Of a stretch of 36,853 nt of DNA, positions 1-20,103 are shown piece by piece. Both the position numbers and the translations under genes were made by a program. The stretch comes from a virus, in UHGV virus genome UHGV-0090257; one strand, given 5' to 3'. The first letter of the stretch is position 1. Every line of letters begins with the position of its first letter. The notes beneath the pieces are model-generated. The model was not told the DNA's origin, did not search any database, and saw nothing but the letters and a program-made list of their open reading frames with translations.

Positions 1-13
1 ATCTCATTTAGCA

Positions 14-38
14 TAAGGCCAAAAGTTTTTTGGCCTTA
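14..38 (-). terminator. Palindromic hairpin downstream of the tailspike gene (possible transcript end at the prophage edge)
   Basis: Perfect palindrome TAAGGCCAAAA-g-TTTTGGCCTTA about 50 nt past the tailspike stop; no clean U-tract outside the stem, so a weak call. Confidence 0.3.
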
Positions 39-85
39 TAAACAATAATAAAAAACTTACAAAATAAATCTACTTTTTAGTATTA

Positions 86-1747: not shown

Positions 1748-1911
1748 TTAATTTGCTCCAGACGTAGCAATGCCGAACAAGATGCAACTTGCCCTGCATT
1801 GCACTAATGTCAGTTATGATTTGTTAATTATGAGATGAGTCTATGCAAAGAGATCTGTTGAATATTGCGCTCTATATATTTGTTTTTTGCACGTTCCTGG
1901 TGTTTGCGAAG

Positions 1912-3909: not shown

Positions 3910-5204
3910 TAATCACCCCATAGTGAAGAAAAGTTACTGCCAGTAGTAGATTGTCGCCCTGGCATATTCTGCACCGGCTCCTGATAATCAAACTGTTTTT
4001 TAACAGTGCTCAACTTGCTTTCAAGCTGATTTCTAATCTTTCCGATAGAGTCACGAAAAGCCTTTTCACTCATTTTGGGGCTTAGGGCACCAACCGCATC
4101 GGATAATTTTTTACCCTCAGCATCTGAAAGAGCACCCATACCCTTCAGGGACTGCACCATAGGAAGGAATGTTTGAGCTTTAAAGGTGTCGAGCCTTGCT
4201 TCAAAGTTAGCCGCATCAGAGCCAGGAACTGTCGGAAACGCTGAGCGAATTCCTACTGCTTTTGAAAGGCCGGGGCTTTGCTCTATCTCGTTGAGAGAAT
4301 CAAGCGCGGCGCTGAACGTATCAACTGCACCCTGAGCGGCGGCCTGCCTGTCAGCGCGGGCTATGTCAGCCTTTTGCCGAACATCTGCCTGTTTCTGTTT
4401 TAGCTCTTCAAGCTTTAACTGATTGCTTTCTCTGGCTATCTGTCTGTCAAGAGCCTTTTCTTGTAATTCTGCTCTTTGTATTTCGCGGGAAAGAGCAGCA
4501 TTCTGTGCGCTGATGTTCTGTCCACGTATCTGGATGTCCTGACCACGCGCTGTTAGTGCTTCTCCAGCCTGATTGCTGCGGATTGTCTCTGCCAGCCTGC
4601 CTCGGTCAATTTCACGACCAGCCATCTTGTCCTGAACATTGAAGTAATCAATCGGACCAAGAGCAGCCATTCCAAGGTGATCAACAAACTCACCAAATCC
4701 TGAAGGGTTCTGCTGATACATCTGAGCAACGTTATTAGGGTCAACACCGACGCGAGTCAGTTCCTTGGCGTTGTTTTGCAGCCATGATTGCATTGCTTCT
4801 GGAGACGAGGCCGCTAGGCGTGCGCCAGCCGCTAAGGTGCCGATAGAATTACGTTGGTCTTCATCAATGAATCCCATGCCTTTACGAACGGATTCAATCT
4901 GGTCTGGATATTGAGTAGCTAACTGACGCAAAGCACCGCGATCACCAGACGCATAAGCATTAGCGTACGCCTGCTGAAATTCTTTCTGCCGCTGAGCCTG
5001 CTTTTCCTGCTGAAACACCCCTGCAATACCTGAAAGGCCTTGCAAAGCAGTCAGCCCAACATTGTTAGCGCCTGAACGCTCAATATCATTGTTCTGCCTG
5101 ATAAGCTGAAGCGTATTGCCGATGTCATTTACGCTCGGAGCGTTTGAGTTGACGCCGCCGATACCAGCCAACAATCCGCCATTTGATCCTTGCCAAGTAG
5201 CCAT
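3909..5204 (-). CDS. Ejection protein, P22 gp20-like
   Basis: 431 aa ORF; synteny gp7-gp20-gp16; start overlaps the upstream stop. Confidence 0.75.
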   Translation of the reverse strand: MATWQGSNGGLLAGIGGVNSNAPSVNDIGNTLQLIRQNNDIERSGANNVGLTALQGLSGIAGVFQQEKQAQRQKEFQQAYANAYASGDRGALRQLATQYPDQIESVRKGMGFIDEDQRNSIGTLAAGARLAASSPEAMQSWLQNNAKELTRVGVDPNNVAQMYQQNPSGFGEFVDHLGMAALGPIDYFNVQDKMAGREIDRGRLAETIRSNQAGEALTARGQDIQIRGQNISAQNAALSREIQRAELQEKALDRQIARESNQLKLEELKQKQADVRQKADIARADRQAAAQGAVDTFSAALDSLNEIEQSPGLSKAVGIRSAFPTVPGSDAANFEARLDTFKAQTFLPMVQSLKGMGALSDAEGKKLSDAVGALSPKMSEKAFRDSIGKIRNQLESKLSTVKKQFDYQEPVQNMPGRQSTTGSNFSSLWGD

Positions 5205-5213
5205 GATTACCCC

Positions 5214-5906
5214 TTAAAACAACGAGCCAAGCAATCCGATACCAGCACCAATTCCAGCGCCCCAAGGTGTTGATGTTCCCAAAAGGCTGGCAAGACCTGC
5301 ACCGGCAATCGCACCAGACGTGCCACCGCTAATTGCAGTCTGAAGACTTGATGGTTTATTGGCATTAGCAGCGGCAAGAGCTGCGCTTTGCTGTGCAATG
5401 CTGCTCATGTTGTTGGCGTACGTCTGCCCGGCGTTTGCCTGACCTTGCAGCGCACCAAGCCCAACGTTTGCCAGATTGTTGTAATTGCTCATCTGATTTG
5501 ATAACCAAGACTGACCGAGTGTCGGCGCGATCGTAGCCAGTTGATTGCTTGTGGCTGTCGAACCAAGTCCACCCGTCGCCTCCGCAGCAGCAAGACTCTG
5601 GTAACGAGCCTGACCTGCAAGGTCTTTATACTGCTGAGAGTTGTAATACTGATTAAGTGCCTGCCCCTGACCTTCTAAACTGGAAAGGTTCTGAAGCTGG
5701 TTAACATACTGCTCCGCAAGAGGCGTGAACGGAGCAAGGTTTTTCATGATCGTCTGCCACTGCTGATTTTGCAGGTCTGCTGCATACTTCTGAGCTTCTG
5801 CGGCATACTTTGCGCTTTTATCAGAACTGCCACCTTTCCCGCCTTTTTCAGGGCAATAAGGTTCCTCGCCGCGCAGTTTTCTGCCCAGCTTAAATGCATA
5901 TAACAT
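5214..5906 (-). CDS. Ejection protein, P22 gp7-like
   Basis: 230 aa (P22 gp7 is about 229 aa); Gly/Ala-rich C-terminus; synteny. Confidence 0.75.
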   Translation of the reverse strand: MLYAFKLGRKLRGEEPYCPEKGGKGGSSDKSAKYAAEAQKYAADLQNQQWQTIMKNLAPFTPLAEQYVNQLQNLSSLEGQGQALNQYYNSQQYKDLAGQARYQSLAAAEATGGLGSTATSNQLATIAPTLGQSWLSNQMSNYNNLANVGLGALQGQANAGQTYANNMSSIAQQSAALAAANANKPSSLQTAISGGTSGAIAGAGLASLLGTSTPWGAGIGAGIGLLGSLF

Positions 5907-5908
5907 GG

Positions 5909-6364
5909 CTATCTCCCGTGATTCAGGAAGTCGATTAGTTCTTCGCGTGTGGCGCTGTAAAACGTCACGTCATCCACGCCTTTGAAGTATTTCTTGATGG
6001 TTCCTACACGCTTAAGGCCAATCATTGCGCAGTACATCTGACCGTGGCGGAATTTGCGCGCGGCGAACGATGTGACGCACTGAACGGTGGTGTTAGTCAG
6101 AATGTATCGCCAGAACGCCAGCCCGATTTCCTTGCTGAATCCACGAACCTCTGGCAGGTACATGGCGTGGCAATCGAATGTCAGCGGCTGAATCTCCTGA
6201 TAGTAAACAATGCCGCCGAACTGCCCGTGCACGTTCACCTCAAAGTAACGGCATTCAGGTTTGTAGTCGTATCCATCACCGTTGTTGCTACCAGCGATAA
6301 TGTCAGGGTGATTTCCGACTGCTTCGATCAGGTCGATGTTTCGCGTTGGTTTGAATGTAATCAT
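5909..6364 (-). CDS. P22 gp14-like virion assembly protein
   Basis: 151 aa ORF between the tail needle and gp7-like genes, tightly packed (2 nt gap). Confidence 0.65.
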   Translation of the reverse strand: MITFKPTRNIDLIEAVGNHPDIIAGSNNGDGYDYKPECRYFEVNVHGQFGGIVYYQEIQPLTFDCHAMYLPEVRGFSKEIGLAFWRYILTNTTVQCVTSFAARKFRHGQMYCAMIGLKRVGTIKKYFKGVDDVTFYSATREELIDFLNHGR

Positions 6365-7065
6365 CAGTCAATCAGCCCATGTAATCTAAGTGCCGTTTCA
6401 AGCGCCAGAATACGCTGCCGCGCCTGCTGCAAACCTGTAGCGAGAGCCGCGACTTCGGATTGTGTGTACGTAGTGCCGACCGTGTATGACTGGTTAGCGT
6501 TGAATGAGCCAAGAAGTGGCGTACCTGTGGCTGCAGTCCATCCGGTCTGCCTTGCTCCAACGACCTGAATTCCATCAACTGAATATGATGTTTTTACATC
6601 CAGCGGTGACGCAAGAGACTGCGATTCGGTTACAGTTTTCGATACGTAATCACTCTTAATGTCAGATACATCGCTTTCTACGCCATCCAGTCTTTGGTCA
6701 ACAGTGACCAGATGCGCCTGAATATCGATAACCTCATCCAGCAAGTAATCAACATCGCTACGCAGTACGACTATCTTCCCTTCGGCAGTTGTTAACCTGA
6801 CCTCAAGTAGATTTATCGCTTTTGTGTTTGCGGTGATTCTTGCATCGTGATCAGCCAGTTCGACGTCCTGTTCATCGTTTTTCACCTGAGCATCGTAAGC
6901 GCCCTGACCAGCCTGATTTGCTTTCCCGGCAATTGCGCCGACATCAGCTCCCTGATTTATGACATACAGCAGGTAAGACTGGCTGAATATATTGCGTGGA
7001 AGGATTGATGTATCGAGTCGTGTAGCCTGAATGATTACCGGCTCATTGAGATTCGAATCAGCCAT
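6364..7065 (-). CDS. Tail needle (cell-envelope penetrating) protein, P22 gp26-like
   Basis: 233 aa, the same length as P22 gp26; [18 protein letters not shown] start and C-terminal ...[21 protein letters not shown] resemble gp26 as remembered; coiled-coil heptads. Confidence 0.85.
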
Positions 7066-8483
7066 TACTCGATCCTTATCTGGCAGCCTGACAGAGTGAC
7101 AGGTGACTTAGTGATAACACGCAATTTGAAGCCGACATTTTTCCTGATGCGCCCAACTCGCTTCCACAAAACGCGTTTGTCGTAAACGAACGGTTCATTC
7201 TGCTCAATCATCTGCTCACGTCCGTAATTGATGCCGTCAGTGGTTGCAGAGAGAAAAAGGCGGTCGGCGTACTGCGCAACGCCAGTTGACGATTCAACTT
7301 CAAGGTCGAAAACTCTGGCGTTATCCGCTTTGAACAACGGAGTAAACAGCAGGTGTTCCTGTTGCTTGTCGTACTGGCTGCTGATGTCGAATTGCAGTTT
7401 CCCGGTAACAGATTCCAGCTTATCGCCGCACGTTATCTGATTGCCTTCGTAAATGAAGTCGATAGCGCGGTACACATCGTCATACAAGCCAGTTTTCAAC
7501 ACACACCATTGCGGACCATTGGCGCTTGAAGATGCGTCGTACACCAGAACATGGCGCGGAAGATGGATAATCAGAAGCTCATGCGCATCAAATCGCAGAG
7601 ATTCCATCACGCCATCAGCCAGTTCATCAGCAGTGTAGGAGCGGAGGATTTTCTCAATGCTCGCGCTGGCGATTGGTGATACCTGACCTGATCCGATGAT
7701 GTATACAGACGGCGCACCCGTTGCCGGATTGCTGATAAACGCATACGAATCAGCAAACGGCGTTTTGCAGTAAGTTCCGGCAATGCCTTTCTGCACCATC
7801 AGTGATGGCTGTGCGACATACAAAGCAGCACCAACTGTGGTTGCGCCAGTCAGGGAAAAATATTCAATCGTAGATGAACCAAAGCAGACGATGAAGTCTC
7901 GCCATGTTCCGATTCCGATGATGCCGTCCGGCTGCGATTCTGCGCGATATTGTGCGCTGTAACGGTCAGGATGCGATTCGTCTTCAAGGTCAGTGATAAA
8001 CCATGAATCAGTTCCGTCTTTTGACCACGCATAACGCCCACGTAAGCGCGTAATGTCACGGACCGAACCTAATTCATACTGCGTGAATCCGCTGTCTGTA
8101 GGCCAGTTTGAGACGGTTTTAACCGTGCCATCATAACGATACTCGACCAGTTGACCATTAACGCCTACTGCCTGTGATGTCCTACCATGCGCCATTGATA
8201 CGCGACCACTTCCGGCAACATCACCGACCTCACTTTCGCCCTTATACAGTTTGCCACCACAAACGCGATAAACAGCATTCTGCGCCATGTTGTACTCAAC
8301 TCCGCGCGATACGCCGTTCACATCAGAACGTTTGGCAATGCCCGGGAATGAGCGAAGATATCCGCTGCTGTTCAGGATTTCTTTGGGTGTAGCCAACATA
8401 TTCACTGGCAGATAGTCGATATAGTCGGCGTTTCTAAAGTCTTTGCCGACACCTTTCATAAGCGGAAGTTGCTGAATAGGCAT
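7065..8483 (-). CDS. Tail hub protein, P22 gp10-like
   Basis: 472 aa, the same length as P22 gp10; synteny gp4-gp10-gp26. Confidence 0.85.
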
Positions 8484-8491
8484 TTATTCAC

Positions 8492-8974
8492 CTATGCGTT
8501 TGGGATATCGCCATCAATCAGAGGGAGACCGCCTGGATAATATCGGTCAGATGTGAACACGTCATATTTATTACCCTGCCCTACAGGAAAATCTCCACGT
8601 CGTCGCATTGAAGGAACAACCAGAGTGTCGGTCATCAAGGCATCATATGAGCGTTGGGCGTTACTGAGAACTTGCGGAGTTGGCTCAAGGCTGTAATCAG
8701 ATAGCATTCTCAGCAATAACTGATAGCCTACTGCGTGTTTGTATTTTCTTGGAAGACCTGACTCATCATCTGGTAATGGCTGCTCATCTCCAGTTGCGAA
8801 AGCGTAACCAATGTCGCCGGGGTTAATCATCCACTCGGACATCATATCTTCCAGATCATTTACACCATCTTCAATTGATTGCGGCTCAACATCAGTCAGC
8901 GATGCATTAGAAGCAATAGCAAACTTACGAAGCGCAAAAAGGACGATCTCACCCTTTGTCAGTACTGTTGCCAT
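8492..8974 (-). CDS. Head-to-tail adaptor (tail accessory) protein, P22 gp4-like
   Basis: 160 aa; the motif LTDVEPQS..D.V.DLE.MM.EW resembles P22 gp4 as remembered. Confidence 0.8.
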   Translation of the reverse strand: MATVLTKGEIVLFALRKFAIASNASLTDVEPQSIEDGVNDLEDMMSEWMINPGDIGYAFATGDEQPLPDDESGLPRKYKHAVGYQLLLRMLSDYSLEPTPQVLSNAQRSYDALMTDTLVVPSMRRRGDFPVGQGNKYDVFTSDRYYPGGLPLIDGDIPNA

Positions 8975-9134
8975 TGTCTGCCGCCTTACGACCTCGCTTA
9001 CTGGTCGGTTTCAATTCATCAACTGAGGCAACAAAGCCCAACCTTTCGAAAAACTGGAAGTCTTTTTCTGCGATAACGGCCTGTACATGCCCGGATTCGT
9101 TATCTGCGGCAAGGAATACACTCATGCGATCCAT
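8949..9134 (-). CDS. Small hypothetical protein between coat and gp4-like genes
   Basis: 61 aa ORF starting just after the coat terminator and overlapping the gp4-like start; no recognisable family. Confidence 0.35.
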   Translation of the reverse strand: MDRMSVFLAADNESGHVQAVIAEKDFQFFERLGFVASVDELKPTSKRGRKAADNGNSTDKG

Positions 9135-9148
9135 ATTGTTTCCTTAAA

Positions 9149-9172
9149 ACATAAAAGGGGCGTAAGCCCCTT
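9149..9172 (-). terminator. Intrinsic terminator immediately after the coat gene
   Basis: Minus-strand sense GGGGC-ttac-GCCCC followed by TTTTAT, 5 nt past the coat stop codon. Confidence 0.6.
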
Positions 9173-9176
9173 GTTA

Positions 9177-10448
9177 TTACGGATTACCGAAGAACTGACC
9201 GCCCATGTGAGGGTTAAAGCACACATATGCAGGCAGTAAGTCAAAGCGCATTTTTTGCACGTTGGCATCGCCATCTGCGTATTTATGTACGCGGATGGAG
9301 AAACCTTCATATGTTGCAACAGCAGAATCAATACTGTGCAGTTTCGGCAGTGGGATAGAGCCAAGTCCACAGAAGAACTTGTTATAGAACAGGTTTGGCT
9401 TCATTGTCTGGCTAGCAGTGCCTACTACAGATACGGCATCGCCTGCCTCTACCTGACGACTTACAGAGTTGTACTGCGGGTTTGTAGTGTCATAAATCGG
9501 AACACCAGAAAGCGTAACCGTCACATCGCCACTGCTGTCTGAATTAGCATCAGCAGTAACCGTTGCAGTGAAGCTAATTGGTGTGGCTCCGTTATACAAC
9601 GCCTGTTTGGTCTGCTGTTGCAGCCAGTAGGTATTGGTGAATTTGACCTGATCACCAGCTTTCAGAAAACCTGTAACGCTGGCTGTCGCTCCGGTCAATG
9701 TTACAGTGAACTGGTATGAGTCTTTAACTGCGTTATAGGTAACAGTTGGCTGTGTTTTGACTGTCAGTGTTCCGCCAAATGCCCCCTGCGTACGAGAGGC
9801 AAGCCCATTAGACATCAGTGCGCGAATGCCGCCAAAATTGGTTGGGATCTGTGCGTTCTCCCATGCAGTACGAACCAATTGATCTGAAGCATGCAAACCA
9901 GTCTGCGCATCAGCAAGTCGCTGTGCAGACCATGGATCCATTACAGCATAGTTTTCACCTTCATTAACGCCGAGGTCTTTCAGGAAAGATGCCGTCTGCG
10001 CAACATCAGACCATTTGGTGATTGGAGTATTGGGGCTACCAAGTGACAACGCACCGTTATTCATCATGAAGTGAGCAAGCTCTGTTTCAAGGTCGGTAAC
10101 GATTCGCTGGCGAACCGGCGCGAGAATTTCTTCCAGCTGGTTAAGCTTGATCGCTTCCTCCAGTTGCTGATATTCAACAGCAACAGTGATGTAGTTACCT
10201 ACACGCCCCGTAGCTTTACCTGAGATCAGGTTGTTTTTATTTTGCCCTGAAATATCACCAGTGGGAGTACGGAGGGATGAGAATTGATGCGGACGTTTAA
10301 AGCTAACGCTATCGCCAGTGCTGGAGTTGATTTCACCTGCCAGCAACTGACGGTCTACGGTTTTCGCCAGAACTAAATCTGACATAAAACCCGGAAGGAA
10401 TTTTTTCAGAACGATTTGACTGACGTTACTGTCGAGATTGTTAGGCAT
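9177..10448 (-). CDS. Major capsid (coat) protein, P22/Sf6 gp5-like
   Basis: 423 aa (the Sf6 coat is 423 aa as remembered); lies between scaffold and gp4 with a strong terminator after it. Confidence 0.85.
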   Translation of the reverse strand: MPNNLDSNVSQIVLKKFLPGFMSDLVLAKTVDRQLLAGEINSSTGDSVSFKRPHQFSSLRTPTGDISGQNKNNLISGKATGRVGNYITVAVEYQQLEEAIKLNQLEEILAPVRQRIVTDLETELAHFMMNNGALSLGSPNTPITKWSDVAQTASFLKDLGVNEGENYAVMDPWSAQRLADAQTGLHASDQLVRTAWENAQIPTNFGGIRALMSNGLASRTQGAFGGTLTVKTQPTVTYNAVKDSYQFTVTLTGATASVTGFLKAGDQVKFTNTYWLQQQTKQALYNGATPISFTATVTADANSDSSGDVTVTLSGVPIYDTTNPQYNSVSRQVEAGDAVSVVGTASQTMKPNLFYNKFFCGLGSIPLPKLHSIDSAVATYEGFSIRVHKYADGDANVQKMRFDLLPAYVCFNPHMGGQFFGNP

Positions 10449-10459
10449 TTATCTTTTCC

Positions 10460-11344
10460 TTATTCGATTTTTGCGCCGGGGCATAATTTGTTGAATTCGT
10501 CTTGTTTCGCATCAGCACCGCCACCACGTACTTCCGGCTCTGGCTTGATGGCTTTCTTTGGTTTTGGAGCAAGGCTTACCTGTTTGCTAATCTGCCCCAA
10601 GAGGAATGCTGCGCGAATTGGATCTGTCTCAGCGGCTACACGCTGGCGTAATTGCTGGCTCTTACCTAAGCCATAGGCGAGTAGTTCAGAGCCTTCGTCT
10701 GCACAGTGAATGATGATTTCCTGCTGAATTGGTGGTAGCTCACTAAGAACAATGGCTTCCATTTCCTGATAATCTTTCACAGGAAGTTTGGCTGCCCGTT
10801 GTTTATGCGCTTCTACCCTTTGCTGGAAACGCTGCTGGTATTCCTGTTGCTGACGTAGTTTTTGTTGCTGCTGCTGTTCGACACGGCCTTTTTTCTCATG
10901 CCAATCAGTCAATGCCTGTTCAAACGCCTGTTCGTCATAATCACACGACTCAAGAGTCGGTTTTGGTGGAATAGCGTCTGGTTGTGGTTGCTGATGTTCC
11001 GCTGGCTTGGCTAATGCTTCCTCAAGCTGGCGGCGCAACTCACGGTTTTCTTTCTGTGTTTCTTTGAAGCCTTTGCGAAGATCTTTCACCCATTGCGGTG
11101 CAGGTTGCCCGTCAATGTGATCATCATCGTCAGCGTTAAGCTGAATTTCTTCATCACCAATACGCAAGGCGTAATCTTCTGGTGTCTCTTCGGTTTTTTC
11201 AGGCTCAGTTGCCACCTCTTTACCGTTGTCATCCTGGCTTTCATTCTCAGGCTGTGACTCTGTTTGGATGATGGTTTCTTCTGCATTTTCCTGTGTTTCA
11301 GACAGGCCAATAACCTGACCGTCGATGATCAGTTCGTTTTCCAT
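10460..11344 (-). CDS. Scaffolding protein
   Basis: 294 aa, highly charged and Gln/Glu-rich with a coiled-coil character; positioned between portal and coat. Confidence 0.8.
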   Translation of the reverse strand: MENELIIDGQVIGLSETQENAEETIIQTESQPENESQDDNGKEVATEPEKTEETPEDYALRIGDEEIQLNADDDDHIDGQPAPQWVKDLRKGFKETQKENRELRRQLEEALAKPAEHQQPQPDAIPPKPTLESCDYDEQAFEQALTDWHEKKGRVEQQQQQKLRQQQEYQQRFQQRVEAHKQRAAKLPVKDYQEMEAIVLSELPPIQQEIIIHCADEGSELLAYGLGKSQQLRQRVAAETDPIRAAFLLGQISKQVSLAPKPKKAIKPEPEVRGGGADAKQDEFNKLCPGAKIE

Positions 11345-11357
11345 TGATTACTCCTAG

Positions 11358-13484
11358 TTAACTCGGCATTAAGTCTGCCGGAGACTGTGGTGGTGACTGG
11401 AATTGCTGTTGTTGTGACTCGGAGACATCTTTCAGAAGGCGTATTGCCTCCATCACTGCTTTGTCATCGATGTTTCTGGCTTGGGCCAGTTTATAGACAG
11501 TGTTTGCCTGACTCTCCATCGCATCCTGCTGGGCAGTAAATGCTTTGATTTGAGTTTGAGCAGTTTCGTTAGTTGCTTTTTGCGCTTCTGCCTGCGCTGC
11601 TACCATTTGCGCCTGAGCGAGAACCATTTCAGGATTTGGCTGGCTTTGTGCTGCCATTTGCGCCTGTTGAACAATCTGCTGCTCTTTCTCATTGCGTGGT
11701 TTTGCAATACCAGATATCAGCAGTTGGTTTCGGTTGTACTCTTTGAAGTCATCAAGGCCTTCGCCATCGATATTGTCCAGAATAATACCCTGAATTGCCG
11801 GGCGCATTGGGTCTGTTGGAAGCATAGAGCTAAGGACATTTGTCAGTACAGAAACCGTTGCATCACGTCGTGCTGTGTAGCTTGGTCCAACATCAACCGT
11901 CACATCGTATCGACCGACAGAAAGGTCATTTAACGCAACAACAGCCCCTGTTTGCCTGTCAACAACCTGTGCGCTCAGGACAGCGATATCATCACTTCCA
12001 TCTTCGTTAACGATGCGCACTTCACGTTCTGAACCGTACACTTCACGCGCCATTGACAGCCATACTTCACCAGCGCGTTTAAGACTTTTCGCCATATTGT
12101 CCAGATAGATAAACGAAGCCATATCTGCTCTGTTCATCAAGTTGTTAACCGTTTCCTGAGCAATATTACTTGGCATCTGCTGCATGGCCTGACTGCCGCC
12201 TGTAACCTCCTGAATATCTGCACTGGTTTGCTGTAGTAATGCAGCCAATGCCTGATTCATAACCGCAGGCTGTGTATATCCTGCCGGGGTAGCTCCAGCG
12301 ATAATGTTGCCAGATTTATCTCTCACTTCGCGCAACGGCAAGAACGCTGGGCGTTTCTTGTTGCGAGCCTCCCAGTGCTTCTCAAGTCCACGAATTTGCT
12401 CCATGCCAACTATAGGGATCTGACCGGGGTCTTGCGCTGCAGTATCAGCCAGCATTGAAACCTGAAGGTTGTACAAACGCTGTGGATCCATTGCTTTTGC
12501 AATGTGCCCTTCGACACGCTCAATGTCATCAATGAACCAGCGTTTTCCATAAACCGGGATGAGGGGGATATGCTCACCAGGAATACGTCGAGGTTTCTCA
12601 AGGAAACCATCACCATCCACTACGGATACATACACACGACGGCGCTTCACTGAGCGCCTTGCCACTTCCTGAAATCCAGCTATTGCCAGTTCATCTTCAA
12701 TATCTTCAACCTGATCACTGTCGTATGTTGCAACCTCTCCAGTGATTGGATGTCGATAACTGATGACGTCAACAGACTCTTTACGAACTTCGTAATACTT
12801 CGCTATGTAAATAACATCTTCATCAAACCAGTCATATTCCCAACTGGTCATAGACGTTACGTCCAGAGAAGCAGGAGGTTTCTTTCCGTATTCAGCCTCA
12901 TATTTTTCAGGTGACAACGAATACATGCAGAACGCCCACAACGCGTCAGATTTGTCGTACTTCTTAGCGTCAGGGTCAAACCACACAGAGCGCGACGGGT
13001 CGTATATTGGTTCAATAGCAATACGCTGACGATCGTCCATGGGGTCGTATTCATTGACCAGCATCGACGTCAAACGGAAGCAACCGAAACCACCAGTAGC
13101 AGCGTCGTCAAATGCATTATCGCAAGCCTCACCGCCATCAGTTTCTTCGTAGTCAGCACGGAACAGACCATTTAATTTATTGGCTAACTCTTCGCTTGCC
13201 TCTCTGTCACCAGGACGAAACTTAACGGTGATTCTATTATTGCGGTATTCTGCAATGATGCGGTTAAGTTCAGTTGCTACCTTATTGATTTCAAACTTAG
13301 GATACTTCTCGAACTGCTCATCAAGCTTAGTTCCAGCCGCCGTTGCTCCTTCCCATTGACCTCCGGGGACACGAGCAAACCTCGTAGCTTCAATGCACTT
13401 TTCGCGCACTTCCTTCTGTGGAGAATAGGCGCGGTCAAACCTGAGCATGATCCGCTCATGTTTTTTCTCTAATGTCTCTGCCAT
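11358..13484 (-). CDS. Portal protein
   Basis: Six-frame ORF is 732 aa; the likely start is the internal ATG at 13484 (MAETLEKK...), 2 nt after the terL stop, giving 708 aa, the size of the Sf6 portal as remembered; Gln-rich C-terminal barrel region. Confidence 0.85.
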   Translation of the reverse strand: MAETLEKKHERIMLRFDRAYSPQKEVREKCIEATRFARVPGGQWEGATAAGTKLDEQFEKYPKFEINKVATELNRIIAEYRNNRITVKFRPGDREASEELANKLNGLFRADYEETDGGEACDNAFDDAATGGFGCFRLTSMLVNEYDPMDDRQRIAIEPIYDPSRSVWFDPDAKKYDKSDALWAFCMYSLSPEKYEAEYGKKPPASLDVTSMTSWEYDWFDEDVIYIAKYYEVRKESVDVISYRHPITGEVATYDSDQVEDIEDELAIAGFQEVARRSVKRRRVYVSVVDGDGFLEKPRRIPGEHIPLIPVYGKRWFIDDIERVEGHIAKAMDPQRLYNLQVSMLADTAAQDPGQIPIVGMEQIRGLEKHWEARNKKRPAFLPLREVRDKSGNIIAGATPAGYTQPAVMNQALAALLQQTSADIQEVTGGSQAMQQMPSNIAQETVNNLMNRADMASFIYLDNMAKSLKRAGEVWLSMAREVYGSEREVRIVNEDGSDDIAVLSAQVVDRQTGAVVALNDLSVGRYDVTVDVGPSYTARRDATVSVLTNVLSSMLPTDPMRPAIQGIILDNIDGEGLDDFKEYNRNQLLISGIAKPRNEKEQQIVQQAQMAAQSQPNPEMVLAQAQMVAAQAEAQKATNETAQTQIKAFTAQQDAMESQANTVYKLAQARNIDDKAVMEAIRLLKDVSESQQQQFQSPPQSPADLMPS

Positions 13485-13486
13485 GT

Positions 13487-14899
13487 TTACCAACCGGAGG
13501 ATGAGGGAACGTATATTTCTGTTTCTTCGCGGACCAATGCCGGGCAATGCATACACATCATCAGCGCATCAGCCAGGTTAGGAGATGGAATACCGAGCTT
13601 CTGCTTCATTTCGACCTTAGTCATTAACTCAAGCTTCCCGTTGTTATTGAATTTGCGCTGAATCTGCGTCAGTTCTGCAAACAGCTTCTCCAGCATCTTC
13701 TCGCCTATCGCTTCTTTGTCGAAACTCAGCATGTCGTCGGGGTCTGCATACTCACCGTGAACAACCGCCCGATATGTCAGATACAGCCTGTCAGCCAGCG
13801 CGTAATAGAATTGCGCTCGCTTATTGCGGAACACATCGCCAATAGTGCGAACGTTGTCGCCCTGTACGACTTCATCGGCCCATGCTCCGGCCTGATATGG
13901 TGCATCTTCATCGAATGGCGATTCGCTACCCTTGAACATCGTGGCGGTGATTTTCTTGCCGGAGAACGCTTCCGTTGTCTGTCTGCGCAGCCCTGCACCG
14001 ACACCATCGCCATCCCACAGGTAATGGTCAGCGCCGTCTTCAATCGCCAGCGAAGTAGCCCAGTCAGCACCCTCGTTGATGTCCATCAGCAGACCTTCGG
14101 CAATGCGCTTAACTACCGAACCGTGACGCGATGCATAACCTTTAGCATCTGGCCCTGTATCTGATGGGTCATGCGCAGAGACAACAGCGCCTTTCGCTTT
14201 CCATCCGAGTTTCTTGTGCGCATCGGTTGCGGCTTCAAGCCATTCACGTTTGATGATTGCCATATCACTTGCGCTTACTGGCTCACCAAGCCAGATGTGA
14301 CGATACAGTGTCGGATTTCTGCGTTTGCACTCTTCCATCTCCAGACGGAGAACTTCAGGAAAGTGCGGGTTGTCGGTGTAGTTCACCGTCAGCAGGCAAA
14401 TATCATCGGGAGGATTTACGACGAATCGCTGATAGGTATCGTCGAGAATGTTCTTCGGGTTAAAGCTCACCCATATTTCAGAGAACGGCTTACGGATGGT
14501 TGGGATCAGGATATCCCATGATTCCTTCGTTACCGCTTCCGCTTCTTCCACCCAGCAGATATCAATGCCTTCGAGCGATTTAATCTTCGTCGGGTTGTTT
14601 TTGATGCCGTAGAACATGAATTCAGCATTCGTTCCGAGATGACGAATCATTGAACGCTGAATTTCAAACTCAGCCGAATACCCTTCCCGCTCGATGGTAT
14701 CTTCAAGCAACCGGATTACCGAATCGCTGATACTGTTTTGCAGTTCACGAGCGCAAAGAATACGCACTGGCTGCCGACGCGCCGCTTCAACAAGCAGCCT
14801 CGCAATTGCCCATGACTTACCGCTACCTCGACCGCCTTTGGCGACTTTGTAGCGATGCGCCTCAATGAACGGTTCAAAGATAGGATTAATCGAGGTCAT
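13487..14899 (-). CDS. Terminase large subunit
   Basis: 470 aa; Walker A motif KGGRGSGKS near the N-terminus; the same length as Sf6 gp2; start overlaps the terS stop. Confidence 0.9.
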   Translation of the reverse strand: MTSINPIFEPFIEAHRYKVAKGGRGSGKSWAIARLLVEAARRQPVRILCARELQNSISDSVIRLLEDTIEREGYSAEFEIQRSMIRHLGTNAEFMFYGIKNNPTKIKSLEGIDICWVEEAEAVTKESWDILIPTIRKPFSEIWVSFNPKNILDDTYQRFVVNPPDDICLLTVNYTDNPHFPEVLRLEMEECKRRNPTLYRHIWLGEPVSASDMAIIKREWLEAATDAHKKLGWKAKGAVVSAHDPSDTGPDAKGYASRHGSVVKRIAEGLLMDINEGADWATSLAIEDGADHYLWDGDGVGAGLRRQTTEAFSGKKITATMFKGSESPFDEDAPYQAGAWADEVVQGDNVRTIGDVFRNKRAQFYYALADRLYLTYRAVVHGEYADPDDMLSFDKEAIGEKMLEKLFAELTQIQRKFNNNGKLELMTKVEMKQKLGIPSPNLADALMMCMHCPALVREETEIYVPSSSGW

Positions 14900-15423
14900 T
14901 TTCCGAATAGAGTGCTCATCGGTGATGTTTCAATCTGGATTGCGCCGCCGTCTTTGCCTGTTAATTCGTGAGAAGCTTGTTCTTTAAACGCCTGAACAGA
15001 AACATGCTTACCAAGAAGTTCGAGGTTTTTAACCTTATCAGGCCATTTGATTTTCTTCAGAAGTGCGGCGCTATCTGCGGATACCATCTCCACGACATCC
15101 ATTCCTGATAGCGTTGTGCGCCATACCTTAGGCCAGTCTTTAATTGGCTTTAACTCGCCGTTTTGCAGGAGAATGTCGAGCACATCCATCTGGTCGATTT
15201 CAATAAGGCGATTAAGTACATATTCTGCATTAATACCAACAAGATCATTGCGTTGCGCTTTCAGTTCGGAGATTCTTAACTTGATATCAGGTTTTGACAG
15301 GTTTTCGGATGCGGTACGGTTAGCTGTCTTTGCGCTGTACCCCGCCCGAATAGCCGCTTGCGTGGCATTTAAATCGATGAGGTACTCGCGACAGAACATT
15401 TCTTGTTTGTCGGTGAGTGCCAT
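14896..15423 (-). CDS. Terminase small subunit
   Basis: 175 aa; N-terminal MALTDKQEMFCREYLIDLNATQAAIRAGYS is typical of phage small terminase HTH domains; immediately upstream of and overlapping terL. Confidence 0.8.
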   Translation of the reverse strand: MALTDKQEMFCREYLIDLNATQAAIRAGYSAKTANRTASENLSKPDIKLRISELKAQRNDLVGINAEYVLNRLIEIDQMDVLDILLQNGELKPIKDWPKVWRTTLSGMDVVEMVSADSAALLKKIKWPDKVKNLELLGKHVSVQAFKEQASHELTGKDGGAIQIETSPMSTLFGK

Positions 15424-15449
15424 TTTTTACTTCCCATAAGGAGATTGTT

Positions 15450-15632
15450 ATGAACGATGACTTTAAAACAGGTGACATTGTTAAACTGAAATCAGGCGGA
15501 CCTGACATGACTATCAGGTCATTTTCATCTACCCACGGTAACTCTTTTCTTTGTCAATGGTTTGCTGGCAAGAAGCTTGAGCAAGGATATTTCAAACCGG
15601 AATCTCTTGAGCGCGTTACCCCAAAGCCATAG
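15450..15632 (+). CDS. Small DUF2158/YodC-like protein, antisense to the late operon
   Basis: 60 aa, MNDDFKTGDIVKLKSGGPDMTI...CQWF matches the YodC-type small-protein pattern as remembered; strong SD AAGGAG 7 nt upstream; start is only 27 nt from the divergent terS start. Confidence 0.6.
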   Translation: MNDDFKTGDIVKLKSGGPDMTIRSFSSTHGNSFLCQWFAGKKLEQGYFKPESLERVTPKP

Positions 15633-15676
15633 TCCCAAACACACCAACCTTAACTCTTGATGATATTTCATCATGG

Positions 15677-15916
15677 ATGATGTCCGTTTTATCAACAGAG
15701 GGTTGCCTTTATCAGCAGGATGTTGTGGATTATCTCGTTAAACAACATAACGAGCAGCACCTCAAAGAAAATGCGGATGGCAACCAAGCGCTATCAACAA
15801 AAGTGATTAATAAATTCAGGGTTGATAGCGGTGAAAGTGTTGTTTGGGTTAAGCCAGATAAGTACTGGCGTTTCCGTGTGCCTGAAGACGAAAACGGTCG
15901 TGAAGCTCGCGGTTAA
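15677..15916 (+). CDS. Hypothetical protein, second gene of the antisense cassette
   Basis: 79 aa ORF on the same strand as the YodC-like gene; start uncertain; ends just before the bidirectional hairpin. Confidence 0.4.
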   Translation: MMSVLSTEGCLYQQDVVDYLVKQHNEQHLKENADGNQALSTKVINKFRVDSGESVVWVKPDKYWRFRVPEDENGREARG

Positions 15917-15926
15917 ACTAATCAAC

Positions 15927-15954
15927 GATAAAAGGCAGCATGTTGAGTGCTGCC
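15927..15954 (-). terminator. Hairpin terminator between convergent genes
   Basis: GGCAGCA-tgttgag-TGCTGCC stem; on the minus strand it is followed by TTTTATC; sits between the plus ORF ending 15916 and the minus ORF ending 15992. Confidence 0.5.
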
Positions 15955-15991
15955 ATATTCATCTCACTTATTTGTTATTTCAGGTTGAGCA

Positions 15992-16234
15992 TCATGCTCC
16001 GGTAGTGAACAGGTCTAACGCTTCCTTCGATTTACGCACCGCTTCGATAGTGCGGGTCGTGATATCTGAATTAGCGCCGCCTGACTGGAAGTGAATTTTG
16101 AATAGCTCAAGCTTCAGTTCGTCAGTGCCAATGAACTGAAATGCTTCTTCTGCGGCTGCGTTCTGGTTCATGACCAGCTTGTAAATCTCTAACTGGAATT
16201 TCTGTTCTTCAGTCATGGGAATAATCTCTGCCAT
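15992..16234 (-). CDS. Hypothetical protein
   Basis: 80 aa ORF in the late-operon direction, followed by a terminator hairpin. Confidence 0.5.
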   Translation of the reverse strand: MAEIIPMTEEQKFQLEIYKLVMNQNAAAEEAFQFIGTDELKLELFKIHFQSGGANSDITTRTIEAVRKSKEALDLFTTGA

Positions 16235-16340
16235 TGTTGGCTCCGTTTATCCGTTAAAAGGGATATCAGTTAAGTTATCCCGTGTAGGGTATAAGCCATT
16301 ATCAAAGCCACTCTGTAGGGAATGGCTTTTGTGATGGCAA

Positions 16341-16364
16341 TAAAAAAGGCCGCCTGAGCGACCT
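16341..16364 (-). terminator. Intrinsic terminator after the DUF551-like gene
   Basis: Minus-strand sense AGGTCGC-TCAG-GCGGCCT followed by TTTTTTATT. Confidence 0.5.
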
Positions 16365-16381
16365 TTCATTTTTCATCCGTT

Positions 16382-16600
16382 TTAATCATCTGGGTAATTA
16401 AGCGGCATCCAGTGTGTAACCTTGCTTGCTCCTGAATCGATGAATGCCTTGGTTCTCTGCCAGTAAGAGCCCATACATGATAGTTTGAACACGTCACCAG
16501 TATCAGTAAGAGCTATAACCTCTTTAGACCACATCCCTTCTTTGCTTTCTGGTAGCCGGTGTTCAACATTGATCCATTGGTTTCCGTTATCATCCATCAC
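16382..16600 (-). CDS. DUF551-like phage protein
   Basis: 72 aa; the motif QWINVEHRLPE resembles the W-x-V-x-D/E-R-L-P-E signature of DUF551 proteins as remembered. Confidence 0.5.
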   Translation of the reverse strand: MMDDNGNQWINVEHRLPESKEGMWSKEVIALTDTGDVFKLSCMGSYWQRTKAFIDSGASKVTHWMPLNYPDD

Positions 16601-16816
16601 AACCTCGTCTAGTTGTTCGCCATAGATTCAGTGGCAGGCGGTGACGAGTCCGCTTTTCGGGAGCTACCCTAGCCACTGCTTTATTCTATCCAATGTCTTT
16701 CCATCAGTCCGCCACCACAAAGAATCTTTTTTGCCATAAGGCAGGAGGTTCATCTTTCAGTGGCTGCCAGTGTTATTTCCCCACTTACTGGCTTGGGTTG
16801 TTTCGCTGTACTGCCG

Positions 16817-17359
16817 TTAATTGGTGAGTCCGGGGATTACGGTTTGCCCGTGCTGTTCAAGGCGTTCAATTCTCGCCAGTAGCTGAGGCTTCTTAATTTT
16901 TCCCCAGCGATTAAGCAGGCGGCCTGACATGCTGGCAACATCCTTCTCTTTCATGTACTCCAGCATTACGGCATTTCTCTCTTCTTCAAATTGACGATGA
17001 CCAACCTGAAGCATGGCGTACATCCAGTTGAATGCGTTGATGTAAGCAATTTTGATACGCATTGCTTCTTTTTTGGTGTAGGACATAACCAAAAGCATCA
17101 ACCCATCCTTGCGGAGACGGTAGAATTTTTGCGGCTTACCATTCTGTAACTCATTGTTTTTATAGCAAAGCTCAAAGTTGAGCTTTGTATTAAACTCAGG
17201 AGGGCAAGCTTCTATGGTTCGCTCAATGTCACGGACTACGTTCTTCGGCAGCTTTCCAAATGCTTTTGCCACCATAAAAGAATCTGTAACCGGATCGTTG
17301 TTTGCTACAAAAATTAGGTCTCTGAAATCTATATCGTTAACAACGGTTGGGTAGTTCAT
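16817..17359 (-). CDS. Rha-family phage regulatory protein
   Basis: 180 aa; N-terminal PVTDSFMVAKAFGKLPKNVVRDIERTIE resembles the Rha domain as remembered. Confidence 0.65.
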   Translation of the reverse strand: MNYPTVVNDIDFRDLIFVANNDPVTDSFMVAKAFGKLPKNVVRDIERTIEACPPEFNTKLNFELCYKNNELQNGKPQKFYRLRKDGLMLLVMSYTKKEAMRIKIAYINAFNWMYAMLQVGHRQFEEERNAVMLEYMKEKDVASMSGRLLNRWGKIKKPQLLARIERLEQHGQTVIPGLTN

Positions 17360-17506
17360 TGCGTCTTTACCTTTTAGAAAGATGAGCCTGTTCGCACAGA
17401 AAAGCCGTCCCCGAGATGGTCGCCACCATATACGGCAATTCTCAGGCTCAGCTTTCTGAAAGACTCGGGATTGTTACGCGCTGCGATGCGCGGTTTACTG
17501 CAGATG

Positions 17507-17532
17507 TAAAAAAGCCCCGCGAATGCGAGGCT
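17507..17532 (-). terminator. Intrinsic terminator downstream of Rz
   Basis: Minus-strand sense AGCCTCGC-attc-GCGGGGCT (8 bp with one G-U pair) followed by TTTTTTAC. Confidence 0.45.
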
Positions 17533-17705
17533 AAATCCTGGTGTTTGTGATGACTGGCTCTTATCTCAACGCAGCCCCTTACCGCGCGCCAGATGCTCAA
17601 TATCAAGCATCAGCAATGAGATGTTTAATCTGGATTCTCTCCAGAAGTGATCACCACCCTGTCTACAGAGCCAGATGTGAAGGATGATGAGTAAAATTAT
17701 CGCTA

Positions 17706-18143
17706 TCATCGAAGGCATTGCGTCCTGATGTACTCCTGCAGGTAGTTAACCTGCGCGGTTATCTTGTCGATTCCGCTTCGGAGACGGTAATAATTGAGTT
17801 CAGCATCTGCTGTAAGTCTTGGGCTTTCTCCATCGCCCATGCTGCTGGCTCCGGTCGTTGACTTTGCACAGGTGGCGGCGACTTGCAGGCGCTTACGACC
17901 AGCAGAAACATCAGCACGGAGACTTTCGATAGTCGCGTTAGCATCAGCAAGCTCCTTTGTATATCTGGCATCGAGTTCTGCTACGTCACGTTGACGCTTC
18001 TGCATATCAGCGATTGTGGATGTGGCTTGATCGCGCTGCTCTTTGTAGGCGATGGCGTTATCACGGTAATGATTAACAGCCCATGACAGGCAGACGATGA
18101 TGCAGATAACCAGAGCGGAGATAATCGCGGTTACTCTGTTCAT
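17706..18143 (-). CDS. Rz: Spanin inner-membrane subunit (i-spanin) Rz
   Basis: 145 aa; N-terminal TM segment then coiled coil; follows the endolysin with a 4 nt overlap; matches lambda Rz closely as remembered. Confidence 0.9.
17759..17944 (-). CDS. Rz1: Outer-membrane lipoprotein spanin Rz1, embedded in Rz in the +1 frame
   Basis: Embedded ORF; from the internal Met: signal-like [20 protein letters not shown] with lipobox VSAC followed by the proline-rich stretch [16 protein letters not shown]. Confidence 0.75.
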
Positions 18144-18616
18144 GCCTCAATCTCTCTGACCGTTCCGCCTGCTTCTTTGAATTTTGCAATCAGGCTGTCA
18201 GCCTTATGCTCGAACTGACCGTAACCAGCCCCCGGCAGTGAAGCCCAGATATTGCTGCAACGGTCGATAGCCTGACGAATATCACCGCGATCAATCATCG
18301 GTAAAGCGCCACGCTCCTTAATCTGCTGCAGCGCAACAGCATCCTGGCTTTTCGGAGAGAAGTCTTTCAGTCCAAGTTGCTTACGGTAAGCATCCCACCA
18401 ACGGGAAAGAAGCTGGTAACGTCCGGCTGCTGTTGATTTGAGTTTGGGGTTTAGCGTGACAAGTTTGCGAGGGTGATCGGAGTAATCAGTGAATAGCTCT
18501 CCGCCTACAATGACGTCATAACCATGATTTCTGGTTTTCTGACGTCCGTTATCAGTTCCCTCTGACCACGCCAGCATATCGAGGAACGCCTTACGTTGAT
18601 TATTGATTTCCACCAT
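18140..18616 (-). CDS. R: Endolysin (lytic transglycosylase), lambda R
   Basis: 158 aa, [51 protein letters not shown]... essentially matches lambda R as remembered. Confidence 0.95.
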
Positions 18617-18923
18617 CTTCTACTCCGGCTTTTTTAGCAGCGAAGCGTTTGATAAGCGAACCAATCGAGTCAGTACCGATGTAGCCGATGAACACGCTCG
18701 TTATATAAGCGAGATTGCTACTTAGTCCGGCGAAGTCGAGAAGGTCACGAATGAACCAGGCGATAATGGCGCACATCGTTGCGTCGATTACTGTTTTTGT
18801 AAACGCACCGCCATTATATCTGCCGCGAAGGTACGCCATTGCAAACGCAAGGATTGCCCCGATGCCTTGTTCCTTTGCCGCGAGAATGGCGGCTAACAGG
18901 TCATGTTTTTCTGGCATCTTCAT
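18600..18923 (-). CDS. S: Holin/antiholin, lambda S (dual-start motif M-K-M)
   Basis: 107 aa, [39 protein letters not shown]... matches lambda S107/S105 as remembered. Confidence 0.95.
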
Positions 18924-19248
18924 GTCTTACCCCCAATAAGGGGATTTGCTCTATTTAATTAGGAATAAGGTCGATTACTGATAGAACAAATCCAGGCTAC
19001 TGTGTTTAGTAATCAGATTTGTTCGTGACCGATATGCACGGGCAAAACGGCAGGAGGTTGTTAGCGCAACCTCCTGCCACCCGCGTTCACGAAGGTCATG
19101 TGTAGAAGGCCGCAGCGTAACTATCACTGATGAATTCAGGATAGCCAGTGGCTACGGCTCAGTTTGGGTTGTGCTGTTGCTGGGCGGCGATGACGCCTGT
19201 TCGCATTTGGTGATCCGGTTCTGCTTCCGGCATTCGCTTAATTCAGCA

Positions 19249-19334
19249 CAAAAGGAAGAGCGCTAGTCTACCTCTATCGATTAACGGGCTTGTGGGGCAG
19301 TATCGCCGATTCACCTAACGCTCTTCCTTTTGTG
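19249..19334. repeat. 16-bp perfect inverted repeat flanking a 54-bp spacer in the late leader
   Basis: CACAAAAGGAAGAGCG at 19249..19264 and its exact reverse complement CGCTCTTCCTTTTGTG at 19319..19334. Confidence 0.6.
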
Positions 19335-19346
19335 ATTGTAACGCAA

Positions 19347-19376
19347 AAAGCCCCGAGCTATTAACTCAGGGCTTTA
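19347..19376 (-). terminator. tR'-like intrinsic terminator of the pR' leader transcript
   Basis: Minus-strand sense GCCCTGAG-ttaatag-CTCGGGGC followed by TTTTTGCG, about 30-55 nt downstream of the predicted pR' start. Confidence 0.6.
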
Positions 19377-19402
19377 TTTAACGAGTGCATTTATCCATCG
19401 TT

Positions 19403-19440
19403 GGGTCAAATTTACCCAGCTTTATTCAAAAAGTCAATAT
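19403..19440 (-). promoter_or_regulatory. Late promoter pR' with Q-utilisation (qut) region
   Basis: Minus-strand sense TTGACT-17 bp-TAAATT directly downstream of Q; the string ttgactttttgaataaagctgggtaaatttgac closely resembles lambda pR' as remembered. Confidence 0.7.
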
Positions 19441-19479: not shown

Positions 19480-20103
19480 CTAACGTGTGACCGCATTCAA
19501 AATGTTGTCTGCGATTGACTCTTCTTTGTGGCATTGCACCACCAGAGCGTCATACAGCGGCTTAACAGTGCGTGACCAGGTGGGTTGAGTAAGGTTTGGG
19601 ATTAGCATTGTTACAGCGCGATATGCGGCGCTTGCTGGCATTCTTGAATAGCCGACACCTTTGCATCTTCCGCATTCTTTCTCAACAACTCTCCCCCACA
19701 GCTCTGTTTTGGCAATATCGACCGCACGGCCTGTACCGTGGCAATCTCTGCATCTTGCGCCCGGCGTCGCGGCACTACGGCAATAATCCGCATAAGCGAA
19801 TGTTGCGAGCACTTGCAGTACCTTTGCCTTAGTATTTCCTTCAAGCTTTGCCACGCCACGGTATTTCCCCGATACCTTGTGTGCAAATTGCATCAGATAG
19901 TTGATAGCCTTTTGTTTGTCGTTCTGGCTGAGTTCGTGCTTACCACAGAATGCAGCCATTCCGAATCCGGCTTGTGATTGCGCCATCCCCATAGCAGCCA
20001 TCACATCAGTACCGGAAAGAGAGTCAGAAGCCGTAGCCCGTGGTGAGTCGCTCATCATCGGGCTTTTTGGCGAATGAAATTTAGCTACGCTTTCGAGTCT
20101 CAT
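19480..20103 (-). CDS. Q: Late-gene antiterminator Q
   Basis: 207 aa; sequence matches lambda Q as remembered ([31 protein letters not shown]...). Confidence 0.95.

Follow-up and report, generated by a model that had tools for sequence, protein, structure and literature searches.

The stretch of DNA analyzed here, UHGV virus genome UHGV-0090257 (36,853 nt; hereafter the window), is a near-complete P22-like prophage encoding a P22-type portal, a P22 coat, a tailspike head-binding domain, an S24 repressor, an integrase, and a lambda-type Q. Between its last lysis genes, Rz/Rz1, and terS, the first packaging gene, lies an interval of accessory genes that includes a Rha-family regulator, a DUF551 open reading frame (ORF), and the 80-aa gene DUF2560. 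This interval is an ordinary, already described hypervariable accessory region of the P22-like (Lederbergvirus) late operon. Our reading, which we hold with a probability of roughly 0.7, is that it is built of independently exchangeable slots joined by conserved linkers and that its terminators, T1 (17513-17532; with T1b), T2 (16345-16366), and T3 (15934-15954), belong to three different units. T1 and the weaker T1b would end the lysis cassette and a trailing small ORF, within a leader reaching the start codon of the first cargo gene (slot 1); T2 would be the 3′ end of a self-contained mini-cassette of approximately 347 bp; and T3 would terminate, in a convergent arrangement, a two-gene cassette that was inserted in reverse orientation between DUF2560 and terS. 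An earlier note on this DNA had described Rha, DUF551, and the 80-aa gene as accessory genes in the late transcript path, each followed by its own hairpin-and-U-tract terminator, and had suggested that they are morons expressed independently of the virion genes. The genes and the three terminators are as that note described them, with all six features within 2 nt of the positions it gave and identified here by domain matches and strict terminator calls, and the genes are indeed non-essential accessory genes that are polymorphic among relatives and lie on the path of the late transcript. Which unit each terminator belongs to is another matter: standing next to a terminator does not turn a phage gene into a moron, and ownership must be read from relatives.

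The phages closest to the window are CUS-3, Sf101, epsilon34, HK620, Sf6, and P22. As a sample of relatives we used 80 viral contigs encoding an identical DUF2560 protein, 72 of which also contain Rz, and these 80 loci fall into approximately 60 distinct gene orders. When the window was compared with seven annotated relatives, homology breakpoints mapped to ORF edges, to 16313|16687, and directly after the DUF2560 stop codon. The GC content of the accessory cassettes (0.42-0.46) is near that of the whole window (0.46), and they therefore carry no foreign composition signature.

Terminators were called strictly, requiring a hairpin that is compact and reaches -9 kcal/mol or better, with a U-rich tail directly after it; this definition superseded an earlier permissive finder that gave dozens of sites per strand. 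On the late strand, positions 1-19400 contain five such sites: the tR′-like terminator behind the late promoter, T1, T2, T3, and a hairpin after the coat gene (9155-9172). Three of the four sites other than tR′ lie within 1.6 of these 19.4 kb, with a binomial probability of approximately 0.002 that is rough and post hoc. T1, T2, and T3 are all GC-rich hairpins followed immediately by U tracts on the late strand, the U tract of T3 being better on the minus than on the plus strand, and each forms a more stable fold than shuffled sequence (z from -3.0 to -3.6). The post-coat site, before the next head gene, is a GC-rich hairpin whose 7-bp stem is perfect and which has a U-rich tail on either strand; it is the only other canonical terminator-like site within the structural genes.

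The distribution of these sites among relatives assigns T1 to the lysis end, T2 to the DUF551 insert, and T3 to the reverse cassette. In 57 of the 72 loci, regardless of cargo, a strict terminator stands after Rz or after the small ORF, ahead of slot 1. The stem variants of T1 preserve base pairing, and the epsilon34 record annotates a Rho-independent terminator at this position. T1b (-12.4 kcal/mol, or -17.2 when flanks are included) qualifies as a strict terminator in many relatives and belongs to a leader found with all cargo types, which is kept in epsilon34 and in the Escherichia coli LF82 prophage Gally up to the cargo ATG. Further downstream, a terminator between the last recognized cargo gene and DUF2560 is present in 7 of 59 loci. 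Between DUF2560 and the terminase genes, all four loci with the reverse cassette have a terminator and none of the 41 loci without it does, and the T3 sequence was found solely beside the reverse DUF6953-YodC pair. As judged from sequence, then, neither Rha nor DUF2560 has a terminator of its own, and the claim that each gene is followed by its own does not hold: T1 closes the lysis cassette and T3 tracks the reverse cassette.

Exchange of genes is seen in slot 1. The ORF in this position, Rha in the window (Phage_pRha 77.9 bits against a cut-off of 29.9; ORF11CD3 91.2 bits; PHROG 518, 2e-81), is swapped ORF-precisely in relatives for a KilA-N, GIY-YIG, Gp49-family, or different Rha gene. Whether the cargo is Rha, KilA-N, or GIY-YIG (17355-17362 and 16817-16839; loci L001, L004, L007, and L013), homology of the relatives extends through the cargo ATG and returns within approximately 20 nt of the stop codon. 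On one side, the conserved flank comprises the small ORF, T1, T1b, a ribosome site, and the ATG; on the other, it is a 126-bp spacer. This spacer holds an 18-codon stub that is the N-terminus of P22 orf25 and ST64T orf118 and that continues as a 37-aa ORF in phage Huey. Also in Huey, two slot genes (L009 382-762 and 997-1497) bear the label "anti-CRISPR protein" in the record, a label only; one of them belongs to the Gp49/Sf6 gp66 family, which is common here (18 of 72 loci).

The small ORF between Rz and T1 is annotated in Sf6, epsilon34, Sf101, and E. coli, and a weak promoter-like site within it (TAAACA-17-GATATT, 17599-17627, minus strand) is invariant in the alignment of relatives. Prophage Gally carries the same small ORF, T1, T1b, and leader, almost identical in sequence, as well as a slot-1 Rha-family gene, a copy of T2, and DUF2560. 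RNA-seq of Gally has been published as gene counts, not mapped RNA ends, for 10 samples under five conditions (PMC9928086 S1 Table); the labels of three of these conditions are not defined in the text consulted. In all 10 samples, rha stood at log2 3.1-3.8, equal to silent structural genes, while the repressor reached 8.9-12 (PMC9928086). The small ORF (GALLYPH_52) rose to log2 7.4 in two samples, with flanking Rz and rha at approximately 3.5 (PMC9928086), that is, up to 16-fold above its neighbors and with an approximately 16-fold fall to Rha across T1. These counts point to a short transcript of local origin that ends at or near T1, which is indirect support, confined to T1, for termination activity. 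The small ORF locus may give an RNA of approximately 85 nt ending at T1, instead of or besides a protein.

The proposal of three morons, each with a private lysogen promoter and its own terminator, draws on several of these observations: the three terminators are real and clustered, the three genes vary among relatives, the DUF551 unit is built like a moron (see below), and Gally DUF2560 stands modestly over its neighbors in some samples. We nevertheless consider it very unlikely. Most relatives lack a terminator that follows Rha and belongs to it, and the window has no strict terminator between Rha and the next unit; here Rha also lies behind two terminator-like hairpins, T1 and T1b. No promoter-like site was found upstream of Rha in 17360-17512 by the consensus scan of the tool or by a relaxed scan, nor upstream of DUF2560 in two consensus scans; across the tool and relaxed scans, the same was true of YodC, and sites elsewhere matched only 8-9 of 12 positions. 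Lysogen expression of Rha, judged through Gally, was at background throughout, and the authors of that study concluded that Gally carries no morons (PMC9928086). T3, moreover, travels with the reverse cassette rather than with DUF2560. Thus, of the promoters that the earlier note had wished to see predicted upstream of each gene, the one candidate is a weak -10-like box before DUF551, and comparison with P22-like relatives, which it had also advised, confirmed exchangeable genes and a precise DUF551 indel without bearing out gene-owned terminators for Rha or DUF2560.

Alternatively, the hairpins might not be working terminators at all but homology patches for cassette exchange, or processing or 3′-stabilizing elements of the late mRNA. 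T1 and the leader do flank every cargo type, with breakpoints at their edges, and the Sf6 record annotates a "boundary sequence" inside Rz. Stable small RNAs, P22F and P22G, accumulate in the matching P22 intergenic regions (PMC13397905): P22G is a 204-nt RNA from P22 infections that covers the rha 3′ end and the spacer, the homologous region in the window being 16691-16880, and P22F ends 6 nt 5′ of rha (PMC13397905). A comparable hairpin, furthermore, follows the coat gene. We regard this alternative as unlikely given the canonical GC-rich stems with U tracts directly after them on the late strand, the maintained pairing of T1 stem variants, and the drop in Gally signal across T1, although terminator and boundary or stabilizer roles are not mutually exclusive.

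The assignment of terminators to exchangeable units has its own weak points. Gally is a relative with a different Rha allele, its high spontaneous induction raises the local background, and gene counts do not locate RNA ends. Gally DUF2560 and an orf59c homologue stood 2-5 fold over their flanks in some samples (PMC9928086), and a weak promoter 5′ of DUF2560, unseen by consensus scans, may therefore exist. The -10-like box of the DUF551 cassette is paired with a poor -35, and some members of the RNA motif family that follows it (int-alpA, below) have a terminator in place of a promoter directly upstream. Read-through by Q-modified polymerase in this prophage, on which the proposed working below depends, is extrapolated from lambda biology.

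T2 closes the one self-contained unit of the interval, in which a -10-like box, an int-alpA RNA motif, DUF551, and T2 follow one another, with T2 starting 17 nt after the DUF551 stop codon. The whole cassette corresponds to an indel of approximately 347 bp, from about 16339/16345 to 16690, that is present in five loci and absent from Sf101, epsilon34, Sf6, and four E. coli prophages; a short repeat leaves its right-hand boundary uncertain by a few bases. In the breakpoint comparison, the block 16314-16686, with DUF551 and T2, was absent from most of the seven annotated relatives. The cassette is rare, occurring in 29 of 5426 complete E. coli genomes. Its promoter, CGGACT-17-TAGAAT, is a weak prediction from the relaxed scan that matches 8 of 12 positions. 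Precise presence or absence between conserved flanks, together with a terminator at its end, makes the DUF551 unit moron-like, and it appears to be the only unit of the interval with such anatomy. The idea of independently expressed morons may accordingly be kept for DUF551 in terms of anatomy; it finds no counterpart in Rha or DUF2560.

T3 lies at the edge of a second insertion, whose YodC and DUF6953 genes are on the plus strand, so that T3 stands between convergent genes. The pair is also rare (approximately 16 of 5426 complete E. coli genomes) and always accompanied the terS type of the window in the loci examined. A tblastn search with the reverse cassette and DUF6953 gave no match among 50,697 GenBank phage records, though PHROG 10782 matches, and neither the consensus nor the relaxed scan found a promoter-like site for the pair. 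Just upstream of YodC, a 42-nt hairpin followed by U6 covers the first 14 codons of terS (15381-15428). It folds to -24.2 kcal/mol on the plus strand (z -3.6) and to -16.1 kcal/mol on the minus strand, that of the terS mRNA (z -1.9), and it looks like a plus-strand terminator shielding the reverse cassette from antisense terminase transcripts. On the other side of DUF2560, another hairpin, conserved and lacking a U tract, keeps its stem despite changed bases on both sides in Sf101, epsilon34, and the E. coli prophage P13-6 (16304-16329).

How such a region might work can be sketched from its position in the late operon. On the minus strand, Q is followed by a P_R′-like site, tR′, holin, lysozyme, Rz/Rz1, the accessory interval, terS, terL, and portal, and the window thus has the Q protein, the promoter right after Q, and the terminator close behind that typify a lambda-type late operon. 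Experimentally determined P22 late mRNA extends over the corresponding genome end into the packaging genes, according to the epsilon34 paper (PMC2629481). During lytic growth, by analogy with lambda Q, Q-modified polymerase starting at P_R′ would read through tR′, T1, T1b, T2, and T3. Rha, DUF551, and DUF2560 would then be made as late genes. The reverse cassette lies backwards between DUF2560 and terS, and late transcription must therefore cross it antisense on the way to terS. In the prophage, where Q is absent, the terminators would split the region into compartments, as the Gally data suggest in part: T1 and T1b would silence slot-1 cargo and end the short small-ORF transcript, and T2 and T3 would keep local transcripts out of the terminase genes.

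The coordinates of these features are collected in Table 1. Several of them, namely the 50-aa ORF, T1b, the int-alpA RNA, and the plus-strand YodC and DUF6953 genes, had been missed in the earlier note.

Table 1. Features of the accessory interval of UHGV-0090257 and of the late genes that flank it, in order along the late (minus) strand.
Feature	Position	Strand	Evidence or details
Lambda-type late antiterminator Q	19480..20103	-	PF03589 Antiterm, 6e-58
P_R′-like late promoter, TTGACT-17-TAAATT	19409..19437	-	Consensus scan
tR′-like terminator just 3′ of late promoter	19349..19373	-	-16.8 kcal/mol hairpin, then UUUUGCGU
Rz i-spanin, final lysis gene	17706..18143	-	PF03245, 2e-37; annotated in relatives; Rz1 embedded at 17759-17971
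50-aa hydrophobic ORF overlapping Rz stop	17566..17718	-	Sf6 gp65/epsilon34 gp67 family; PHROG 11822, 6e-37
T1, intrinsic terminator closing lysis cassette	17507..17532	-	AGCCUCGC-AUUC-GCGGGGCU, then U6; -13.6 kcal/mol
T1b, second terminator-like hairpin	17403..17436	-	45 nt 5′ of Rha ATG; then UUUUCUGUG
Rha-family regulator (Phage_pRha + ORF11CD3), slot-1 cargo	16817..17359	-	PF09669, 9e-22; PF10549, 5e-26
Conserved spacer with 18-codon stub	16691..16816	-	Stub at 16683-16739, MAKKILCGGGLMERH...; homologous to P22 "P22G" RNA
-10-like hexamer TAGAAT	16683..16688	-	3 nt upstream of int-alpA; poor -35, CGGACT
int-alpA RNA motif (Rfam RF02996), three-stem leader	16617..16679	-	45.1 bits; gathering score 35.8
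int-alpA P2 loop	16642-16649	-	ACUCGUCA
int-alpA box 1	16617-16622	-	UGGCGA
int-alpA box 2	16604-16609	-	GACGAG; overlaps Shine-Dalgarno GAGG
DUF551 ORF	16382..16600	-	71 aa from ATG at 16597; PF04448, 1e-9; PGAP annotation
T2, terminator at 3′ end of DUF551 cassette	16339..16366	-	9-bp stem, then UUUAUUGC; -12.8 kcal/mol
Conserved 10-bp hairpin, no U tract	16304..16329	-	70 nt 5′ of DUF2560; -16.7 kcal/mol, z -4.67
DUF2560, conserved anchor gene	15992..16234	-	80 aa; P22 orf80 family; PF10834, 1e-43
T3, terminator between convergent DUF2560 and DUF6953	15926..15954	.	7-bp stem, then UUUUAUCG; -10.5 kcal/mol
Reverse two-gene cassette	15450..15916	+	YodC/DUF2158 (15450-15632) and DUF6953 (15677-15916); Pfam, PHROGs, PGAP
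42-nt hairpin, then U6, over first 14 terS codons	15381..15428	+	Just upstream of YodC
terS, first packaging gene	14896..15423	-	PF03592, 1e-39

The region's one feature of moderate interest is the int-alpA leader, with its design of a loop and two boxes. This motif is the sole Rfam match above threshold in the whole window, covers the model over its full length (1-71), ends 17 nt ahead of the DUF551 start codon, and is present in all four other DUF551 loci. Its P2 loop is complementary both to box 1 and to box 2, which overlaps the Shine-Dalgarno (SD) sequence. A viral collection was scanned for the conserved junction bases of the motif, yielding 69 non-redundant instances on very diverse contigs; the Rfam threshold was reached by 15 of 16 sampled instances, and of the 62 instances for which a start was predicted, 58 have the start codon 24-48 nt downstream of the motif. 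The P2 loop forms a mean helix of 6.05 bp with a proximal box (3-12 nt after the motif) and of 5.53 bp with the SD region, compared with 3.94 ± 0.12 and 4.47 ± 0.11 bp, respectively, when loci were permuted (n = 59 viral instances). Both helices reach at least 5 bp in 46 of the 59 instances, against 11.3 expected. Since this complementarity to box and SD recurs across the 59 instances, a portable translational leader is suggested, and the leader of DUF551 most likely acts in cis on translation, with its P2 loop pairing either with the SD region or with the nearby decoy box.

The genes that follow the motif are accessory or selfish (HNH, Rha, HTH_36, Dam, GIY-YIG, endonuclease VII, Bro-N, and DUF551). 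On enterobacterial contigs, at least five unrelated ORFs of 57-83 aa stand between a leader of one subtype and a terminator of the T2 family, and on one contig such a leader/T2 cassette stands between Q and the holin gene, not after Rz. By itself, the leader has matches of 75-85% identity in phages of Vibrio, Pseudomonas, Klebsiella, Edwardsiella, and Pantoea. Hexamers with at least five of six matches to a -10 box show an enrichment 14 to 4 nt ahead of the motif, where 21 of 68 viral instances have one, and in other instances a terminator or the end of a tRNA lies directly upstream. We tentatively suggest, at somewhat less than even odds, that int-alpA is a portable cis leader of small accessory or selfish cassettes and not a free small RNA (sRNA), that its anti-SD-mimic loop, displayed by a three-way-junction core, gates translation wherever a cassette lands by pairing with the ribosome-binding site or an adjacent decoy box, and that the leader subtype with T2 forms a plug-in expression cassette. 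On a contig designated L160, an isrJ Hfq-binding sRNA (Rfam, 60.8 bits; 4498-4648, minus strand) lies directly 5′ of an int-alpA-led 74-aa ORF with a T2-type terminator, and this isrJ/int-alpA unit is placed between an antiterminator-like gene and a holin gene.

Two points count against a cis leader: Rfam types int-alpA as an sRNA, and the pairing of loop and box is a statistical deduction from sequence. The Rfam type would fit a different role, in which int-alpA here is a trans-acting sRNA or a 5′ stabilizer and does not control translation of DUF551. A U run follows the outer stem in about one-sixth of instances, and the -10 boxes often put the start of transcription at the foot of the outer stem, where a 5′-terminal protective hairpin would have it. 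This role seems to us rather unlikely, because the motif stands at a fixed short distance from the start codon in nearly all instances, because loop and SD region co-vary well above permuted controls, and because the copy in the window has no U run after its outer stem. The outer stem was also considered as a terminator and dropped, given the frequency of U runs and their absence from the window copy. A literature search found no functional study of int-alpA, and the main text of the paper describing it is silent on the motif. It is an orphan Rfam motif that, in phages of several groups of bacteria, precedes mobile accessory genes of many kinds, and translational control by it, if true, would explain how small cassettes achieve defined expression after landing in foreign operons.

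Other searches of the interval added little on the functions of its genes. Rha is reported to inhibit phage growth in IHF-deficient hosts (Henthorn and Friedman, 1995, as cited in PMC8951638). The IHF consensus WATCAANNNNTTR does not occur in the interval and has one site in the whole window, distant and below chance expectation. A PADLOC defense search of six small interval proteins gave no match, a search of solved structures for Rha, DUF551, DUF2560, DUF6953, and YodC gave no meaningful match, and a literature search for transcript studies of P22 rha and orf80 found nothing specific.

Compared with known systems, the arrangement adds one more variant of a well-known mosaic region, and little changes. 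The interval corresponds to rha-orf25-orf80-orf59c of P22, genes 65-68 of Sf6, hkbK-hkbN of HK620, and genes 67-71 of epsilon34. It shares with the P22-type interval the position between Rz/Rz1 and terS, the orf80/DUF2560 anchor, a slot-1 gene of Rha or KilA-N type, and a small ORF with a terminator after Rz (the terminator being annotated in epsilon34). Unlike the P22-type interval, the window has the int-alpA/DUF551/T2 cassette and the reverse YodC/DUF6953 cassette, whereas P22 has orf59c, which the window lacks. The int-alpA copy resembles its RF02996 family in its three stems and in the conserved CUAG, CGAAAAG, and CCUG junction bases. In contrast to what the family name implies, it lies within the late operon between Rha and DUF551, with the integrase 19 kb away. 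The moron concept is said to have come from the comparison of HK97 and HK022. Like lambdoid morons, the DUF551 unit is inserted between conserved late genes, is precisely absent from close relatives, and ends in an intrinsic terminator, while unlike them it has no deviant GC content and its promoter prediction is weak; for Rha and DUF2560, neither a promoter-like site nor a terminator of their own was found. An "ant moron" has been described in P22-like phages (PMC2629481). Finally, the YodC/DUF6953 pair, antisense within a late gene block, resembles STMMW_20121 of ST64B, a layout that has been called characteristic of accessory loci (PMC7067206).

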